Shown piece by piece: positions 14,224 to 59,320 of a stretch of 64,000 nucleotides of DNA. A program made the position numbers and the translations under genes. Positions within the stretch are counted from its first letter, which is position 1. Every line of letters starts with the position of its first letter. Source of the stretch: a virus; IMG/VR virus record IMGVR_UViG_3300005264_000255, positions 14,497 through 78,496 of that record. One strand, given 5' to 3'. The notes under the pieces are model-generated. The model worked only from the letters and a program-made list of their open reading frames with translations, had not been told where the DNA came from and made no database searches.

Positions 14224-15300
14224 ATGTTTAACAATCTTTGGGATAGAGATAGAAGATACCGTACACATGTATACGGTAACATGGAAGTTATAAAGCAAAA
14301 TATTAATGATTCCCTTTTCACAGTACGTAATTATTATACCGATAAAGACCTGTTTGTAAGAAAACCTAATATTCTAGTCACTTTAATTAATTCTTTAAAT
14401 ATTGATTTTACTAAAGATCCAACAGACGTATTCATTCATTTAACAGAAACTGCATACTACCGTGCCAACAGTTTAAAGTTGGTTACATCTAATAATAAGA
14501 ATAGTTTCTCTTTTAACAATACGGTTATTCGTAACATGGATGAGTATTTCATCTATACAGAGGATACTTTCGATTATACTGACGATATTAACTATTTTAA
14601 CTTAACACCTATTAAATGTATACATAATACGCTAGACCATGTTTTCCTTACACATCCACAAAAGTTTAATGATACCTTAAAAGGATTTGATTACAGTATA
14701 TACAGTATAGATGTTATTATGTTAGGAATGCAATATTATCATTGGTATAAATATAGGATGTTTATGTCTGAGTCTACAGATGCTGCTAAGTTCATATATG
14801 GAATACCTTTAGTAAATAGTATAAATAGTATATTTGATATAAATTTAAGTAATAGGTTTATTAGGAAGATGAATGATGAGGATGTTAGTGATTATACTAA
14901 TCATAACGTTTTTAATCTTAGAGATGATTCTAAGAGGATTGATAAGCTATTAGACTTCTATGTTAAGCAAATGTCTAAGGATAATAGAATATACTACTCA
15001 GAGGCTTTATATGGTATTCCATTAATGATTACTAACAATGCCTTAGATATTATAAATATTCCACAGATACGTTATAATACGAATAATAAATGGATGGCTT
15101 GGTTGTTACGTATTGACTACTTTATATTCCTTTTAACTTTTATAGACAGTAAGCTTAACAGAGATACTATTAGTGAAATTAAAATGTTACTTAATTATGA
15201 TATTGGTAATAGGGTATTTGATATACCTAATAAAGATTTAAAATTTACTTTACAAGAAAAGATATACAATTTAACAAAATTAATAAATAAGGAGTTATGA
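14224..15300 (+). CDS. Conserved chimallivirus hypothetical protein
   Basis: Likely start ATG 14224 after AGGAG; VRNYY...V...NILV.L and IDV.ML.MQY..W motifs recalled from a phiKZ-like core family. Confidence 0.55.
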   Translation: MFNNLWDRDRRYRTHVYGNMEVIKQNINDSLFTVRNYYTDKDLFVRKPNILVTLINSLNIDFTKDPTDVFIHLTETAYYRANSLKLVTSNNKNSFSFNNTVIRNMDEYFIYTEDTFDYTDDINYFNLTPIKCIHNTLDHVFLTHPQKFNDTLKGFDYSIYSIDVIMLGMQYYHWYKYRMFMSESTDAAKFIYGIPLVNSINSIFDINLSNRFIRKMNDEDVSDYTNHNVFNLRDDSKRIDKLLDFYVKQMSKDNRIYYSEALYGIPLMITNNALDIINIPQIRYNTNNKWMAWLLRIDYFIFLLTFIDSKLNRDTISEIKMLLNYDIGNRVFDIPNKDLKFTLQEKIYNLTKLINKEL

Positions 15301-16825: not shown

Positions 16826-16868
16826 TTTAACTATAATATTTAACCATAGTCTATCTAAGTAATATATA
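16826..16868 (-). promoter_or_regulatory. Early (virion RNAP-type) promoter plus leader hairpin
   Basis: Minus strand TATATTAC-TTAGATA-GACTATGGT-TAAAT-ATTATAGTT. TATATTAC is the described phiKZ early promoter consensus. Confidence 0.7.
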
Positions 16869-16886
16869 TGTAATAAAAAGTGGAGA

Positions 16887-17447
16887 TTAGGATATTTCTA
16901 ATATCCTAACAACATTAAATAATGTTAATATCTCACTTACTTCCCCAAGTTTCTTATTCTTAAAGAAGATATTATTATTAATAACTCTAATATTTAACTT
17001 TTTACCAGAATGGCCAATAACGTTAACATCATAACGTTTATTATTCTTAAAAACATTTCTATCTGTAACATCAGATATCTTCCTGACGAAGTTCTCTTTA
17101 TTCTTTATACATATGTTAAACTCTGGTACTAAGTAATTCTCACGAATGTTACCTATAGTTCTTTTAATTGTTGCTCCACCTGTACCCATGATAACCCCTC
17201 TATCTTTAGGGTCAGTAAATACCTGTACATTCTTATTTTCTAATATACGATTTAAAGGTATGACTGTATAGATATCAGCTATATCAGCCAGTCTAATACA
17301 TACGTAATCATCCATGGATAACATTTCATCGTACAGATAATGTTCTAACATATCATATTCTAACGAAGGTTGAGTCTTATGTATTTCTTTTAGGGTAAAT
17401 GTATCGCCTAATCGTATTTTAGTATTCAGAAGTTTAATTGTTTCCAT
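16887..17447 (-). CDS. KH-domain RNA-binding protein
   Basis: 186 aa; DRGVIMGTGGATIKRT is a canonical KH GxxG loop; second KH-like loop VIGHSGKKLN. Confidence 0.6.
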   Translation of the reverse strand: METIKLLNTKIRLGDTFTLKEIHKTQPSLEYDMLEHYLYDEMLSMDDYVCIRLADIADIYTVIPLNRILENKNVQVFTDPKDRGVIMGTGGATIKRTIGNIRENYLVPEFNICIKNKENFVRKISDVTDRNVFKNNKRYDVNVIGHSGKKLNIRVINNNIFFKNKKLGEVSEILTLFNVVRILEIS

Positions 17448-17505
17448 TTGTAATTCCTATTAATAATTTATATCTCAGTTAAGATGGTGTATTTAATAAA
17501 AAAAT

Positions 17506-17529
17506 AAAAGGAACTTCAACATTCCTTTT
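17506..17529 (-). terminator. Intrinsic terminator
   Basis: Minus strand AAAAGGAA-TGTTGAAG-TTCCTTTT followed by ATTTTTTT. Confidence 0.5.
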
Positions 17530-17647
17530 ACTGTATTTTAGAGTATATTTTAAAATATAGGTTAACTTGTTCACAAGTTAACCCTACCTTAACTAATCCC
17601 ATAGAGACTAGCCAATCTTTAAACCTTTTCTTAGCTAACATAGACAT
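17528..17647 (-). CDS. Small 39-aa basic protein (not in ORF track)
   Basis: TAATG coupling with the upstream ORF; MSMLAKKRFKDWLVSMGLVKVGLTCEQVNLYFKIYSKIQ; followed by a terminator. Confidence 0.5.
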   Translation of the reverse strand: MSMLAKKRFKDWLVSMGLVKVGLTCEQVNLYFKIYSKIQ

Positions 17648-17961
17648 TATAACATCTCCGTGGGTATTACCCTGTTTTTGTGTGAGTTAGATATAAACTC
17701 GTTTAGTTTAAAATCATGTGGTAAACTTCTACCATATGTTTTAATTAAATATATATCTAAATCATTAATATTATTAAACTCCTGTGTATTACATACACGA
17801 CTACTTTCCTCATATTCGTTGATAATGATACCACCATCTATACCGACAGACCCTGTTACTATATACTCTACGTCACTATACATAGTTGGATATTTAACAT
17901 CTACAGTAACAAATGTAGATGACTTTAGAGATAGCTCTATTTCATCTAACGATTTTAACAT
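17647..17961 (-). CDS. Hypothetical early protein
   Basis: 104 aa; AAGGAG RBS; downstream of TATATTAC at ~18017-18024. Confidence 0.65.
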   Translation of the reverse strand: MLKSLDEIELSLKSSTFVTVDVKYPTMYSDVEYIVTGSVGIDGGIIINEYEESSRVCNTQEFNNINDLDIYLIKTYGRSLPHDFKLNEFISNSHKNRVIPTEML

Positions 17962-17983: not shown

Positions 17984-18025
17984 GATAACGTTAATGATTA
18001 ACTGTTATCTATATAAGTAATATAT
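17984..18025 (-). promoter_or_regulatory. Early promoter with sequence-divergent leader hairpin
   Basis: Minus strand TATATTAC-TTATATA-GATAAC-A-GTTAA-TCA-TTAAC-GTTATC. Confidence 0.65.
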
Positions 18026-18050
18026 AAGTGAAAAGAAATGGACGTTAGTA

Positions 18051-18083: not shown

Positions 18084-18339
18084 GGTTTAGTTTGTTTCTG
18101 GATGAGGTGTAATGTACGGTATGTCGTATAAATAAAAAAAACGCATAATTCACAATGTTGTCTTAACTGTCTATCTGGAACTTAATGCTCATTGTTGTGT
18201 TAACTACATAACTGTCTATCTTGTGTTATTTAAATTTTATCCTTAAAATTTGTTTATAATATTTACCTAAAATTTACTTAAAATTTGTATATAATTTTAT
18301 TTACTTATATAATTAATTGAAATATAATATAATATAATA

Positions 18340-18370
18340 AAGAGGACTTCGTCCTCTTATTTTTTTTCTT
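18340..18370 (+). terminator. Hairpin with T-tract in the long intergenic region
   Basis: AAGAGGAC-TTC-GTCCTCTT followed by ATTTTTTTT. Confidence 0.55.
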
Positions 18371-18384
18371 TATTTTTTTTCTTT

Positions 18385-18530
18385 GTTGTGTGTAGGTACA
18401 GGTTAGGTATGGTATAGGCTGGACAATAGTCTGATCAGTCTTACTTAGCTCTCCCCCAATGAAATGGTCATTGGTCCAGTCTTCACTTTAGCATGATAAT
18501 TTATATATCATATTATATATATTAGAAAGT
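18385..18530. other. GC-enriched non-coding element (candidate structured RNA or origin element)
   Basis: CTGGAC/GTCCAG and CCAATGA/TCATTGG stems, C5 run, six GG dinucleotides in 18394-18422; shares motifs with 55428-55642. Confidence 0.35.
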
Positions 18531-54761: not shown

Positions 54762-55106
54762 CTAATAAGGTAAATATTCCCTTACATCGGTATGTGAAGA
54801 ACTATCATCTATAATCAATATCTGTTTTATACCCAGATATTTCAATAAATCATAGTAACGAGTACTAGGTTCAGATGTTGATAAAACTATACCATCTTTT
54901 AGAGATATATGTCTTAATATTGTAGTACTTAACATATTCTCTTCAGCATGTATAGTATGGGTTAAATCACTACCTATAGAGGCTGAGTTACTATTAACTC
55001 CTGTACCAATAATCTCATCTTCTTTTAAAACTAAACAAGCATGAGATTCTTTACAATCACTAAGTTTTTGTAATGTTTTTAACAATACGATTTCTTTAGC
55101 ATACAT
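54762..55106 (-). CDS. Second, minimal deaminase-fold protein lacking PCxxC
   Basis: ACLVLK...IIGTGVN, HAEEN, EPSTRY and LGIK motifs. Confidence 0.65.
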   Translation of the reverse strand: MYAKEIVLLKTLQKLSDCKESHACLVLKEDEIIGTGVNSNSASIGSDLTHTIHAEENMLSTTILRHISLKDGIVLSTSEPSTRYYDLLKYLGIKQILIIDDSSSHTDVREYLPY

Positions 55107-55129
55107 ATCTTATTCCTTTTAAAAATATA

Positions 55130-55172
55130 TTTAACTATAATATTTAACTATAGTCTATATAAGTAATATATA
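55130..55172 (-). promoter_or_regulatory. Early promoter plus leader hairpin for the deaminase-thyX operon
   Basis: Minus strand TATATTAC-TTATATA-GACTATAGT-TAAAT-ATTATAGTT. Confidence 0.7.
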
Positions 55173-55311
55173 AGTGAGTTACTATGGAGGTTTACTAAAA
55201 TCATCATAGTCATATCATATCAAGATGTTAACATAGTTTATACCTATTATATTTTTTTACTCTAACTATAGTTACTATATATTTTATTTATCTTATAAGT
55301 AATATTTTTTT

Positions 55312-55332
55312 TATATATATATATATATATAT
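55312..55332. repeat. (TA)n microsatellite in an AT-rich tract
   Basis: About ten TA units preceded by a T run. Confidence 0.8.
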
Positions 55333-55427
55333 CACATAGTGATAACTTAGTTATAAATTACTTAGTTATTTATATCTTATATTTACTTATTTATCTTAGA
55401 TGGTTAGCTATTGATTATGTGCATGCT

Positions 55428-55642
55428 CCCACCCCCACCCCCTAGGGGTTTATTCACTTTGCCCAACTCCCGAATCGGGTAGTGTTGGCTCCCTAGTAAT
55501 CCACCGCATAACGCTCCACCAACATACCCATCTTGCGATAGGTATGCAGGCTTCACTGGCAGTGGATGTAGAACGGGACGCACTCCTAGTTAGGTGCTAA
55601 ACTAAAAGTGTACGCAACAATAACAGGTCATGATAAATTCAA
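55428..55642 (-). ncRNA. Candidate structured non-coding RNA (multi-branch, about 160-210 nt) ending in a G-run
   Basis: GC-rich island with no ORF; nested helices contain G-U wobbles and a GCAA tetraloop only when read on the minus strand; downstream G5TG5TG3. Confidence 0.55.
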
Positions 55643-55731
55643 AGTTTGTATTGTATTTAGATACTTAAAGTCTTTCTACATTTCAGACAAATGATGTCGT
55701 TTATATTTTTATTTGATAAAAAGGAAAATAA

Positions 55732-57852
55732 ATGATTTTATTCTATGAAGATTGGTATAGTGATTCACATCGTTTAGCTATACCAGACACTAAAACAAAA
55801 AATAAGTCTTTCTTAAGAATGGCTGGGATATTTAAAAGGATGGGTGTTAAGAATCACCTGTTTCTATTAGCTCTACATCACCCTGAATTACAAGGTGTAG
55901 ATCCACATAGTTCCGATTTAACTAAAGAACAGAAACTATTAATAGGTAAAGAAGTTAAGGAAAATCCATGGTACTTCTTTAGAGAAGTGTTAAGAGTACC
56001 ACCTCCAGCAGGTAGTCGACCTATTTCACTAACTGCTAACAGAGCTAATATAGCAGTAATATGGTTATCGTTAGTACATGTAACCAGTTACCTTATACAA
56101 CCTAGACAAACTGGTAAATCTTTAATTGGTAATGCCATAGATGCCTATTCGTTAAACATAGCCTGTGTTAACACTTATGTATATTTATTAACTAAAGATG
56201 ATAAACTTCGCTCTAAGACAGCAGTTGCCATTAGAGACCTTATAGAAGGTTTACCTCATTATTTACAAATAATGAATAAAAAAGATATTAAGAATACTGA
56301 GAAGATTACAGTTAAAGCTTTACAAAATGAATTTACTATATCTGTAGGTCAGAAGGATAAGAAAGCGGCTGATAATATTGGTCGTGGTGAAACTATTCCT
56401 ATAGTAAGAATAGATGAGTTTGGTTATATATTTAATATAGAAACAAGCTTACCTGTTTTATTAGCAGCCACTACGGCAGCTAGAGAAGAAGCTAAGCGAC
56501 AGAATGCACCTCACTATACCATGTTTACAACTACACCAGGGAAGTTAAATAGTCCAGATGGTAGATTTGCTTACAGTGTATATAAAGAGTCTCTAAGATG
56601 GTCTGAGAAGTATTATGATGTTAAAGATGAAGATGGTATTAATCTAGTATTAGAAAAGAATTCTAATAGCTTTAAAGTTATGTTATTGGAATTTAATCAT
56701 AGACAACTAGGTGTTACTGATAAATGGTTACTAGATAGAATGTCTATAGCATTAGCTAAAGGTGAAAATGCTGAATCTGATTATTTAAATAAGTGGATTA
56801 ATGGTAATGTTACTGCACCTATACCTAAACAGTTTATAGAGTTAATTGTAAACAGTAAAATAAATGAACCTAATCCACAAATTACGAAATATGGATATGT
56901 ACTTAATTGGTATATTAATCAGTCAGCTATTCATGAGATTAAGACATCTGGGTTTATAGTATTTGGTTTAGATACATCTGATGCTTTAGGTGGTAAGTCT
57001 GATGGTATTGGATTAGTAGGTAGAGATAGTCGTACTAGTAAGGTAGTGTGTGGTGGTAGCTATAACGAAACAAACCTTTCCATCTTTGCAGATTTCTTAG
57101 TAGAGTTATTAGAAGAGTTTCCTAGATCATTACTTATACCAGAAAGAAGAAGTTCTGCTAGTGCTATCCTAGATCACATGTTTAGAATTATGGTAGTTAA
57201 AAGAATGAATCCTTTTAAAAGAATCTTTAACAGCATTGTAACTAAGTTATTGGATAACGATATAACTAATAAGTTATTATCTGGAGTACCAACATTATTA
57301 ACATTAGAGAAATATAAGAAAACATTTGGTTTTGCTACTAGTGGCGGTGGTGAGAATTCTAGAGGTTTACTATATGGTAATGTATTCAGAGCTTCGTTTA
57401 CATACGCAGCAGATAAGGTACATGACCCTGTACTAATACATCAGTTAACTAGTTTAAAAATAGTTAATAACAGAATTGATCATGACTCTGGTGAACATGA
57501 CGATATGGTTATTGGTTGGTTGTTAGGTTACTATGTTTTACAGTATGGTAAGAATACTCATATATATGGACTAACTAACAATCTGAAACTTAATTCAGTT
57601 ATTGATTTAGAATTAACTATTAATAATCCTGATATAGATAAGAAAGTTATTATGAAACAAGTAAGACTTAAGGATGAAGCTGAATTCTATCTACAAAAAC
57701 TTAGAGGAGCTAAGAATGAATCCATAGGTACTAAACTATTGACTAAGATTAACTTTATACGCAGTAAGATAGATTATAAGATAATTACTAATTTAAATAT
57801 AGAATCGTTATTAGAAGACATTAAAATGTATAGAAAATTAAAAAAGAAATAA
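55732..57852 (+). CDS. terL: Terminase large subunit (phiKZ gp25-like)
   Basis: NPWYFFRE; Walker A QPRQTGKS; Walker B IDE; FTTT coupling motif; nuclease GLDTSDA and RIDH....HDD motifs. Confidence 0.92.
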   Translation: MILFYEDWYSDSHRLAIPDTKTKNKSFLRMAGIFKRMGVKNHLFLLALHHPELQGVDPHSSDLTKEQKLLIGKEVKENPWYFFREVLRVPPPAGSRPISLTANRANIAVIWLSLVHVTSYLIQPRQTGKSLIGNAIDAYSLNIACVNTYVYLLTKDDKLRSKTAVAIRDLIEGLPHYLQIMNKKDIKNTEKITVKALQNEFTISVGQKDKKAADNIGRGETIPIVRIDEFGYIFNIETSLPVLLAATTAAREEAKRQNAPHYTMFTTTPGKLNSPDGRFAYSVYKESLRWSEKYYDVKDEDGINLVLEKNSNSFKVMLLEFNHRQLGVTDKWLLDRMSIALAKGENAESDYLNKWINGNVTAPIPKQFIELIVNSKINEPNPQITKYGYVLNWYINQSAIHEIKTSGFIVFGLDTSDALGGKSDGIGLVGRDSRTSKVVCGGSYNETNLSIFADFLVELLEEFPRSLLIPERRSSASAILDHMFRIMVVKRMNPFKRIFNSIVTKLLDNDITNKLLSGVPTLLTLEKYKKTFGFATSGGGENSRGLLYGNVFRASFTYAADKVHDPVLIHQLTSLKIVNNRIDHDSGEHDDMVIGWLLGYYVLQYGKNTHIYGLTNNLKLNSVIDLELTINNPDIDKKVIMKQVRLKDEAEFYLQKLRGAKNESIGTKLLTKINFIRSKIDYKIITNLNIESLLEDIKMYRKLKKK

Positions 57853-57861
57853 CTATTAAAT

Positions 57862-57891
57862 ACATAACAACGGAATATTCCGTTGTTATGT
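57862..57891. terminator. Perfect 30-bp palindrome between convergent genes
   Basis: ACATAACAACGGAATATTCCGTTGTTATGT. Confidence 0.7.
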
Positions 57892-59213
57892 TAGTCCATG
57901 AGTTCAGATAGAGCCTGTCTTATTTGTGGTAGCTTACTAGGATCATCTAACGCAGCAATACACCAATTTAATTTTTCATTACGTGATTTCCCATCCTCTT
58001 TTTGAGTTGAGTATCTGTCAGACATATTCTTCGTGTATCCATGTTGATTAATCTGATTAACCTGTGGGTAATCAGGATGATCGAAAATTGGTTGTCTAGT
58101 AAATCCTGCCATCTCCCGACTAATATTAACCATATCAGCTACTCCATTGACGTAATTTGAAATATCATAAACATCATACTGTCCTTGTGGGCGAAAACCT
58201 CGTTGTGATTGATACGGTTGAAATCTATTATAACTATTTTGTTGTCGGTGAGGCTGATATTGTTGACCATGTTGAATTTTAGCTTTATACATATCTTTAG
58301 CAACTATCATTTCCAACATATATATAAACTCTTCCATATTCAGTTCTGAACTATAGTCGAAGTCTCCTATAGTAGGAGCTGTTAAAAATCTGTCGAATTG
58401 ATCTTCATTAAATACAGGATTATTTGGAGATAATAACCCTGCTTTAAATAACTTAAACCCAATAACAAGCTCATCAAGATCACCTCCTGTAGTTAATGGT
58501 ATTATTGCATTTATAACACAATGACCATGTGGTATATGGGTATTAAAGGAAGAATCAGGTGTCTTACTATATATTATAAGAGTTTCATCAGCTACGTTTA
58601 TTGCAAACATGTATCTTTGGTTATTAAACGGTTTAGTGTTGAAACGACTTTCATTAGGTAAAAATGTACGACCTATAAAAATATCAGCTGGGTTAGCATT
58701 TACTTGAAATTCATTAGACATTTTTGTTTCTTTTTTATATTCATCATTATTAGATGTAATGTAATCAGCTAAGTTTATAAATGTTTTAACATTTTTTATA
58801 ATGTCTAAGTAATCAATTTTATCTAACATATCATATGTAAATTTTATGATATCGCCAGTCTGACTATCATGAATTACTATTACTTTATCGTCAATAGCGT
58901 GTGCTAAATTTTCTTTAGTCCCTTTATCCCTATGTATTTTATTTAAAATGATATTATCTTTTAAAGAGAAACGTTTAGAATAGTCAAATATATACGCAAT
59001 ACTATATATACGATCATCTATTGTAGGATCTTCTGATGTCAAAACTAGGATACCTCCTTTTGTATCATTTAAGTTTTCTACGAATATAATAGACTTATCT
59101 TCAACTAGACTATTATACCCAGATGATAATTCAGCTGTAGTTAAAATACTACCTAACTCCAACCCCAACCCTTGTTTACTTTTACTTGTTTCATTTTTTG
59201 TATTTAAACCCAT
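57891..59213 (-). CDS. Hypothetical early protein with a Q-rich segment
   Basis: 440 aa; AAGGA RBS; downstream of a TATATTAC promoter. Confidence 0.65.
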   Translation of the reverse strand: MGLNTKNETSKSKQGLGLELGSILTTAELSSGYNSLVEDKSIIFVENLNDTKGGILVLTSEDPTIDDRIYSIAYIFDYSKRFSLKDNIILNKIHRDKGTKENLAHAIDDKVIVIHDSQTGDIIKFTYDMLDKIDYLDIIKNVKTFINLADYITSNNDEYKKETKMSNEFQVNANPADIFIGRTFLPNESRFNTKPFNNQRYMFAINVADETLIIYSKTPDSSFNTHIPHGHCVINAIIPLTTGGDLDELVIGFKLFKAGLLSPNNPVFNEDQFDRFLTAPTIGDFDYSSELNMEEFIYMLEMIVAKDMYKAKIQHGQQYQPHRQQNSYNRFQPYQSQRGFRPQGQYDVYDISNYVNGVADMVNISREMAGFTRQPIFDHPDYPQVNQINQHGYTKNMSDRYSTQKEDGKSRNEKLNWCIAALDDPSKLPQIRQALSELMD

Positions 59214-59247: not shown

Positions 59248-59292
59248 TTTTAACTATAATAAGTAACTATAGTCTATATGAGTAATATATAT
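59248..59292 (-). promoter_or_regulatory. Early promoter plus leader hairpin
   Basis: Minus strand TATATTAC-TCATATA-GACTATAGT-TACTT-ATTATAGTT. Confidence 0.7.
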
Positions 59293-59320
59293 GTAAAAAA
59301 GAAATAGAGTAAAAAAGTAA

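Follow-up and report, generated by a model that had tools for sequence, protein, structure and literature searches.

The window analysed here is a 64,000-nt stretch of viral DNA (IMG/VR record IMGVR_UViG_3300005264_000255, positions 14,497 to 78,496), and the element under study is a GC-rich island at 55421-55640. The island sits in a 625-nt gap, with a minus-strand operon (two deaminase-fold genes and thyX) to its left and terL, a lone plus-strand gene among minus-strand genes, on the other side. The island was interpreted, with moderate confidence, as a free-standing structured non-coding RNA (ncRNA) gene that would span ~210 nt of the minus strand, starting at ~55631 and ending at ~55422; we infer its transcription, end positions and function from sequence comparison and folding models. 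It most likely belongs to a small, new family, so far found in three closely related, uncultured, AT-rich jumbo phages of the nucleus-forming type. As judged from the copies compared, the family layout would consist of a conserved 5' box, a fast-changing but architecturally conserved body (P1-P4), and a G-rich 3' box (GGGUGGGNGUGGGAGNAUG). The parts of the window copy, in the order of the minus strand, were as follows.

55607..55631, minus strand: conserved 5' box AUGACCUGUUAUUGUUGCGUACACU (25 nt), its first 19 nt predicted to be mostly single-stranded
55605..55610, minus strand: 5' strand CACUUU of the closing stem P1, paired with 55455-55460 in the constrained fold
55580..55597, minus strand: small hairpin P2 (GCAC..GUGC) of the model in the initial annotation, competing with the hairpin 55610-55581 of the minimum free energy (MFE) fold
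55490..55578, minus strand: long arm P3, present in the MFE, centroid and constrained folds, made of UCCC/GGGA, a 9-bp stem, a purine-rich 3x3 internal loop, and an 11-bp stem (55547-55522) with a GCAA cap
55461..55489, minus strand: predicted hairpin P4 (GCC..ACU.CCCG AUU CGGG AGU..GGC)
55455..55460, minus strand: 3' strand AAAGUG of P1, within a shared AGUGAA motif
55422..55448, minus strand: mini-palindrome CCCCUAGGGG followed by the conserved G-rich 3' box GGGUGGGGGUGGGAGCAUG, the box itself being 55440-55422 (19 nt)

GC content was the real outlier of the island, more than its fold score. The best 150-nt window started at 55431 and had a GC content of 0.547, compared with a mean of 0.294 and a standard deviation (sd) of 0.043 for the 64-kb window; the island stood about 6 sd over the mean, and the next-best 150-nt value was 0.42. 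It was the sole strong GC island of the whole 78.5-kb record, which was estimated by CheckV to be 29% complete. The GC-IGR approach (PMC6429828) looks for structured RNAs by this signature, a GC-rich intergenic region within an AT-rich genome. The lone open reading frame (ORF) in the island, a 59-aa GTG frame (55404-55583, minus strand), had no Pfam match and no homologue but itself among 5.8 billion proteins, and the description of the locus as an ORF-free GC-rich island in an AT-rich window therefore held.

ARAGORN detected 0 tRNA or tmRNA genes in the window, and none in G000, G001, G006, and G007. Covariance-model search of the whole window with Rfam 15 gave 0 matches at the gathering score; at E ≤10 over 55100-55800, no match fell inside the island and two chance matches fell outside it. 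Rfam searches of the relatives' loci gave no match either. These results agree with the earlier statement that the element belongs to no named family. The island had no blastn match among 50,697 phage records, no second copy in the 78.5-kb record, and no repeated short motifs within it. The sequencing runs listed as holding the stretch were two DNA runs from one marine-sediment study, none being from RNA; the contigs of both DNA runs were identical over the island and thus added no variation.

The minus-strand 3' end of the element was CCCCUAGGGGGUGGGGGUGGGAG, the most extreme G/C run of the record. The corresponding CTCCCACCCCCACCCCC at 55426-55442 had 14 C among 17 bases and was the top C/G run of the record, the next run having 10. 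Beyond it, positions 55205-55404 formed the most AT-rich 200 nt of the record (16% GC), and a (TA)~10 run was located at ~55312-55333 inside the AT-rich tract. Both the G-run 3' side and the adjoining AT-rich tract with its (TA)n run had been described in the initial annotation and were recovered.

The minus-strand core (55450-55615) had a predicted energy of -66.1 kcal/mol (z-score -4.22), and 0 of 200 shuffles were as good; the plus strand of the core reached -48.2 kcal/mol (z -1.44), and a longer plus-strand stretch gave z -0.3. The minus-strand fold contained 50 pairs, 7 of which were G-U pairs that become A-C mismatches if read on the other strand. The proposed behaviour as a strand-specific structured RNA was thus supported at the level of the predicted folds, and every stem that had been drawn was found again (the long arm, the GCAA-capped 11-bp stem, the hairpin 55489-55461, and the closing stem). 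Forcing the closing stem CACUUU/AAAGUG gave a four-way junction at -63.5 kcal/mol, i.e., 2.6 kcal/mol over the MFE, while the MFE fold itself put CACUUU in the local hairpin 55610-55581 instead, pairing CACUUUUAGUU with AACUAGGAGUG.

Whole relatives G006 (99 kb), G007 (106 kb), and G001 (155 kb) were screened for ORF-free GC peaks. Three further copies of the element were located, two of them in one phage (G006).

G006, 17436-17680, plus strand: copy ~420 nt upstream of phuZ (PHROG tubulin PhuZ, E 3e-44)
G007, 56505-56770, minus strand: copy between a 542-aa gene and a 60-aa gene, 2.5 kb from a helicase gene
L051, on contig G006: diverged copy before its terL, the TerL being 59% identical to that of the window

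The sense strand folded better in 4 of 4 copies. The copy upstream of phuZ in G006 had -94.2 kcal/mol and z -6.0 (antisense z -3.3), the G007 copy had -103.6 kcal/mol and z -4.5 (antisense z -1.1), and the minus strand of L051 had z -1.9 versus +0.2. The layout of L051 was the same as that of the window (early promoter, AT-rich DNA, GC-enriched ORF-free island, and terL), and its island began with the strongest C run of the locus; the gene to its left was unrelated to the deaminase of the window, and the two islands could not be aligned overall. Local alignment gave z-scores of 3.9 for window and G007, 20 for G006 and G007, and 6.6 for G007 and L051. The consensus of G006 and G007 had 36 pairs, of which 13 had changed on both sides and 0 were broken, all in a comparison of two sequences. 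G-U pairs shifted position within a 17-bp hairpin between G006 and G007. Read from the two sequences, these pair changes are what a selected RNA structure looks like.

Homology of the window copy to the relatives was located at both ends. The window 5' box matched that of G007 at 20 of 25 positions and that of G006 at 20 of 24, and the window 3' box (55440-55422) matched the G007 box at 17 of 19. In scans of whole records on both strands (3' box: best match at ≤2 errors), the G007 3' box matched the 78.5-kb record best at one site, 55422, and the G006 5' box at one site, 55607, which was also one of the two best matches of the G007 5' box. In the reverse scan, both window boxes had unique best matches in G007 at its element, and the unique best match of the window G box in G006 was the element upstream of phuZ. 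Box order and strand were the same, with a spacing of 166 nt in the window and 206 nt in G007. The window copy carried the family 5' box pattern (A/U)U(G/A)ACCU..GUUGCG..CACU and, downstream on the same strand, the G-rich 3' box GGGUGGGNGUGGGAGNAUG. The probability of being unpaired was predicted at 0.70-0.73 for the 5' box in three members, and AGUGAA preceded the G box in G007 and L051 too.

When the G007 copy was cut from the 5' box to the G box, its MFE fold was a four-way junction. UCACUG/CAGUGG formed the closing stem, and the other arms were two small hairpins with a long capped arm between them. The junction drawn for the window copy was therefore also the predicted fold of its G007 homologue. 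The P1 equivalent UCACUG/CAGUGG occurred in both G007 and G006; its fifth pair was G-C there and U-A in the window. In G006, such a junction could form in the prediction, but at 14.6 kcal over the MFE. The 5' box and the G-rich 3' box, along with the strand asymmetry and the four-way junction, were common to the window copy and those of G006 and G007, while the window copy was without the relatives' UGGAAAGGGA-capped 17-bp hairpin and AACAGUGGGGGAAA segment. From these comparisons we conclude that the window element is a diverged family member, with homologous ends, a remodelled body, and the topology kept.

The surroundings of the copies were also alike. In 4 of 4 copies, the G box was followed by AT-rich, repeat-bearing DNA, and the G-box strand was the coding strand of the next gene downstream, with an early-type promoter before that gene. 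The downstream genes were different (the deaminase operon, a 115-aa gene, phuZ, and the 60-aa gene). In G006, the third most AT-rich window followed the tail of the element and contained direct and inverted repeats of 21-42 nt.

The features around the island in the window were as follows; the promoter role of the early-type motif is suggested by the motif and its position.

55732..57852, plus strand: terL, complete, divergent from the element and outside it (PHROG terminase large subunit)
55180..55421, no strand: very AT-rich spacer with the (TA)~10 run, short direct repeats, and two left-facing putative early-type promoters
55293..55313, minus strand: second putative early-type promoter AATATTACTTATAAG, pointing to the deaminase operon and part of a direct repeat
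55156..55177, minus strand: putative early-type promoter TCACTTATATATTACTTATATA, ~50 nt before the deaminase-like gene
54762-55106, minus strand: deaminase-like gene, covering profile positions 20-99 of 102
16852-16873, 18010-18031, 55156-55177, and 59275-59296, plus variants: early-type promoter copies in the window

The 22-nt early-type motif TCACTTATATATTACTTATATA (minus reading) had 4 copies in the window, compared with 0.06 expected by chance, and each of the four lay ~50 nt upstream of a minus-strand start codon. As the dispersed form TATATTACTTATATAG(ACTATAGTTA), the motif was located upstream of many minus-strand genes, and it was also present in the relatives G001 (12 copies), G008, G006, G007, and L046. 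It contains TATATTAC, which we take to be the core of the phiKZ early promoter. Two such promoters lie between the island and the operon, and the island is therefore not a riboswitch or leader of the deaminase/ThyX operon. The likely promoter motifs of terL lie to the right of the island. Since TerL is complete with its own motifs and the early promoters intervene on the other side, the island is not the 5' untranslated region (UTR) of either neighbour. No gene diverged from the 5' box in G006 and G007, and therefore the 5' box is not the promoter of a neighbouring gene.

TerL aligned to its relatives from residue 1, which means that the island is neither a terL intron nor a missing terL exon. 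PHROG terminase profiles matched the first 163-217 residues alone and Pfam gave no match; over its full length, TerL aligned to hundreds of terminases from jumbo phages. Current profiles cover the C-terminal two thirds of TerL poorly.

Three motifs were considered as a start or promoter of the element, and none was retained. A TTGA at 55642-39, pointed out in the initial annotation, was not upheld as a promoter, the sigma-70-type scan being at chance level. CATGATAAWTT preceded each of the two plus-strand genes by 101-103 nt and may serve as their promoter, and TATCTAAAT was an 8-mer common throughout these genomes.

Nor was the link with terL and packaging that had been proposed for the RNA supported. 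One copy lay upstream of phuZ (G006) and another between unrelated genes (G007), and most terL relatives were without the element. Among 117 terL loci taken from IMG/VR, metagenomes, and metagenome-assembled genomes, 103 had <150 nt upstream of terL, so that linkage to packaging genes was not conserved across relatives and a packaging role is unsupported. The best TerL relatives (P0002-P0009) had 57-64% identity; relatives at 50-67% TerL identity had 44-111 nt before terL and no element there, and TerL-anchored scans of metagenome and genome collections gave no relative closer than L051. The phi29 pRNA (RF00044) resembles the element in size, in its multi-helix junction, and, in the window phage, in its position by a packaging gene. 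However, the element had no RF00044 match even at E 10, and its homologues lie beside phuZ and other genes. The packaging machines of phi29-like and phiKZ-like phages are of unrelated lineages.

A single-sequence covariance model of the island gave no match over 115 terL loci and five whole relatives, and noise only with filters off. Pattern scans of IMG/VR (a 20-mer, the internal-loop pair, and the terL start context) gave nothing or chance matches. The 5' box pattern retrieved G006, G007, and three chance matches in GC-rich coding DNA; in the records of 19 relatives, it retrieved G007 alone. A 15-18-nt match of the minus strand to the 5' part of the relatives' terL (YRKMG versus FKRMG) was rejected as being at chance level; it recurs because the terL loci of the relatives are homologous to each other. 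Near terL in two other relatives, the GC-richer spots L046:6466-6714 (minus strand) and L047:2571-2723 (minus strand) were small protein genes (82 and 50 aa), each with a good ribosome-binding site, and not RNA islands.

The phage itself encodes a chimallin-like shell protein in the window (PHROG 'nuclear shell protein', E 1.5e-11), and its TerL shared 37-41% identity with terminases of phiKZ-like phages, including those of the PhiPA3 type. With PhuZ in a relative, the earlier label of a nucleus-forming phage is reasonable.

As a working model of the ncRNA gene, the junction would be a stable scaffold, and the two conserved boxes would be working ends that bind a protein or C/U-rich nucleic acid. 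The RNA is proposed to act in trans during infection, and not on terL. In phiKZ and 201phi2-1, small RNAs (sRNAs) derived from intergenic regions and 5' UTRs have been described, e.g., sRNA005 upstream of the gp182/gp277 tail gene (PMC11512511). Like these sRNAs and like the large phage-borne Rfam RNAs ROOL and GOLLD, the element is an intergenic structured phage RNA (a candidate here) kept among related giant phages, and it was recognised by fold and position, not by a known motif. It differs from ROOL and GOLLD in being far smaller (~210 nt), and it resembled no Rfam family in sequence or by covariance model. It differs from the jumbo-phage sRNAs in not being derived from a 5' UTR, in being without an intrinsic terminator, and in having end boxes with a G-rich 3' box; the transcripts of phiKZ and 201phi2-1 sRNAs have been observed, while the present element is known as sequence. 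The literature searched held no description of such an RNA family. The kind of feature is thus known and the family is new; also new here are the link of the window element to its relatives, the end boxes, the second copy in G006, and the separation from terL.

Research on nucleus-forming jumbo phages is very active, and their non-coding RNAs are almost unexplored. The element defines a compact family in which two sequence-conserved boxes flank a fast-evolving, predicted four-way junction, with up to two copies per genome and with every copy adjoining extremely AT-rich, promoter-bearing DNA. A true trans-acting RNA would add a new class to phage riboregulation, and a true primer RNA would show where these phages start replication. 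For the present, practical value is limited, all carriers being uncultured phages from marine sediment or vents.

Several results weigh against a free-standing ncRNA gene, and the first of them, on alignment and covariance models, also against membership of the window copy in the family. The bodies of the window copy and its relatives were not alignable, and covariation that includes the window was limited to one P1 pair. A covariance model of the G006 and G007 cores gave no match to the window copy at E ≤10 in a search of the whole window. In a targeted 461-nt search with filters off, the element was the best match, end to end, but with only 6.6 bits (rough E 0.038). The family so far counts only four copies in three phages. 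In 160 control windows taken from the same genome, z had a mean of -0.5, an sd of 1.2, and a minimum of -3.95; the fold z of the island therefore falls in the tail of the genomic background and is unusual, not off-scale. The G box was only partly unpaired in the predictions (P 0.24-0.42). A sigma-70-type promoter scan of the island was at chance level, the terminator scan gave no intrinsic terminator after the G box, and a promoter-like sequence at 55343-55364 may keep plus-strand transcription alive, at low probability.

The alternative that fared best, itself rather unlikely, is an RNA-primed (R-loop) replication origin, which the initial annotation had also proposed. A minus-strand transcript would fold co-transcriptionally, its G-rich box would pair with the C-rich template as a persistent rG:dC hybrid, or form a hybrid G-quadruplex there, where the template borders on the AT-rich unwinding region, and its 3' end would prime leftward synthesis. 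R-loop primer RNAs include ColE1 RNA II, the mitochondrial CSB II transcript, and T4 oriF/oriG. Like them, the element is structured and has a G-rich segment (55422-55448) beside easily melted AT-rich DNA with promoters nearby; a G-rich segment next to an AT-rich, repeat-bearing region was found in the other three copies too. No other 200 nt of the record were as AT-rich as this flanking DNA in the window, and behind the tail of the G006 copy came the repeat-bearing AT-rich window noted above. The G box was without an intrinsic terminator, while a neighbouring small-RNA candidate (described below) has a canonical one. By analogy, two copies per genome would fit several origins, as in T4, and transcription from the early promoters of the AT tract could switch on an origin, as in lambda and T7.

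These points are offset by others. Intergenic DNA was AT-rich throughout the genome, and the AT tract is at least partly explained by the two early promoters. Cumulative GC skew, computed on records that represent 29-42% of their genomes, tracked gene orientation, showed no separable switch of the origin type, and was in this respect uninformative; there was also no global strand switch at the locus, terL being a lone plus-strand gene. The three G3 tracts are too few for an intramolecular three-tier quadruplex to be conserved. The element has no homology to the known primers and is ~210 nt long compared with ~550 nt for RNA II, and a conserved junction with compensatory changes exceeds the needs of a primer, though ColE1 RNA II is also structured. 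The more specific claim that the family marks the replication origins of a lineage of nucleus-forming jumbo phages, with an R-loop or hybrid quadruplex at the G box, bordering the most AT-rich DNA, priming synthesis in the phage nucleus much as in ColE1 or mitochondria, is slightly more doubtful still.

It is unlikely that the element works as a DNA-level site, i.e., a duplex bound by a phage protein for promoter control or insulation, or as a centromere-like or packaging site. Each of the four copies has an AT-rich tract, an early-type promoter, and a gene downstream in the same orientation, and the end boxes were conserved while the middle was free to change, as such a site would allow. A copy lies directly before terL in 2 of 3 phages, a place that may recall the classical cos/pac position of lambda. 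However, a DNA site would leave unexplained the folding advantage of one strand in 4 of 4 copies, the G-U pairs, and the compensatory stem changes between G006 and G007; moreover, most relatives lacked the element before terL, and the island had no internal repeats of short motifs.

It is improbable that the element is decaying foreign or mobile DNA without a present function, whether as the relic of an intron or homing element, as a captured fragment, or as a piece of a pseudogene. The patchy presence among terL relatives, the varying genome position, and the GC content far from that of the genome would fit a relic, and the terL of this clade is a hot spot for inserts. Against this, no group I or II intron or other Rfam family matched even at E 10, TerL and the deaminase-like gene were intact without the island, the 59-aa minus-strand frame had no protein homology, and no DNA match was found in the phage records or elsewhere in the record. 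Ends and fold were kept between phages with TerL ~60% identical, which argues for selection.

The least probable reading is a rightward transcript from 55343-55364 that would provide a C-rich 5' leader or regulator of terL: a degenerate, inverted 22-nt copy of the early promoter at this position (plus strand, 86% complementary to 55160-55181) points into the island, which lies directly upstream of terL in two phages, but the copy departs from the ATTACTTATAT core at two positions, the plus-strand fold was no better than shuffles (z -1.4, and -0.3 for the longer stretch), the G006 and G007 homologues had no downstream gene on the equivalent strand, and terL is presumably late-type, with its own AT-rich upstream region and ATGAT-type motifs common to other genes.

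Insertions in terL were seen in several relatives. In L128:2670-3178, an in-frame insert of ~500 nt lay between residues 242 and 258 (numbering of the window protein) and could be an intein or intron. The TerL relatives P0069, P0094, and P0096 carried Hint/intein Pfam domains, and terL of the clade is a hot spot for selfish inserts. In the same sample, one of the contigs G008 (L130) and G006 (L051/L140) ended in terL at residue 458 and the other started at residue 412; the two are probably two pieces of one phage genome.

Downstream of terL, a perfect 13-bp palindromic hairpin ACATAACAACGGA..TCCGTTGTTATGT (57862-57891) filled the 38-nt gap between terL and the convergent 440-aa gene. It had no T run and was missed by the simple terminator scan; it is probably a bidirectional terminator that stops antisense read-through. 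In the 5' part of the 440-aa minus-strand gene, CTCCAACCCCAACCCTT (59157-59173, plus strand) was the second most C-rich 17-mer of the record and resembled CTCCCACCCCCACCCCC at 14 of 17 positions in the same orientation. This likeness may stem from G/W/L codons by coincidence, or the two sites may be related.

Past the G box, at a distance of 1-14 nt, the four copies (window, L164, L157, and L051) had an AUG and a mini-ORF of 6-10 codons. The encoded peptides were MHIINS, MRVNQLC, MLNINVNNRQ, and MKKNKE, the window mini-ORF being at 55422-55404 (minus strand). In the window and G007, the AUG belonged to the conserved box GGGAGNAUG. These mini-ORFs are probably chance in AT-rich DNA, and the G box was rejected as a Shine-Dalgarno-like (SD-like) site before them, as ribosome-binding sites of this phage have the sequence AAGGA.

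A second, different small-RNA candidate was located in the window at 18325-18505 (minus strand), upstream of a helicase gene, with counterparts at L164:18998-19185 (minus strand) and L170:6560-6745 (minus strand). Its locus was rejected as a paralogue of the main element, the two intergenic regions sharing the early promoter alone. In the candidate, a hairpin and then GGGGG(G)A came before a variable middle and an intrinsic terminator of canonical type; the candidate was conserved in G007 (also upstream of helicase) and G001. Of its 23 consensus pairs, 9 were compensatory, including pairs of the terminator stem.

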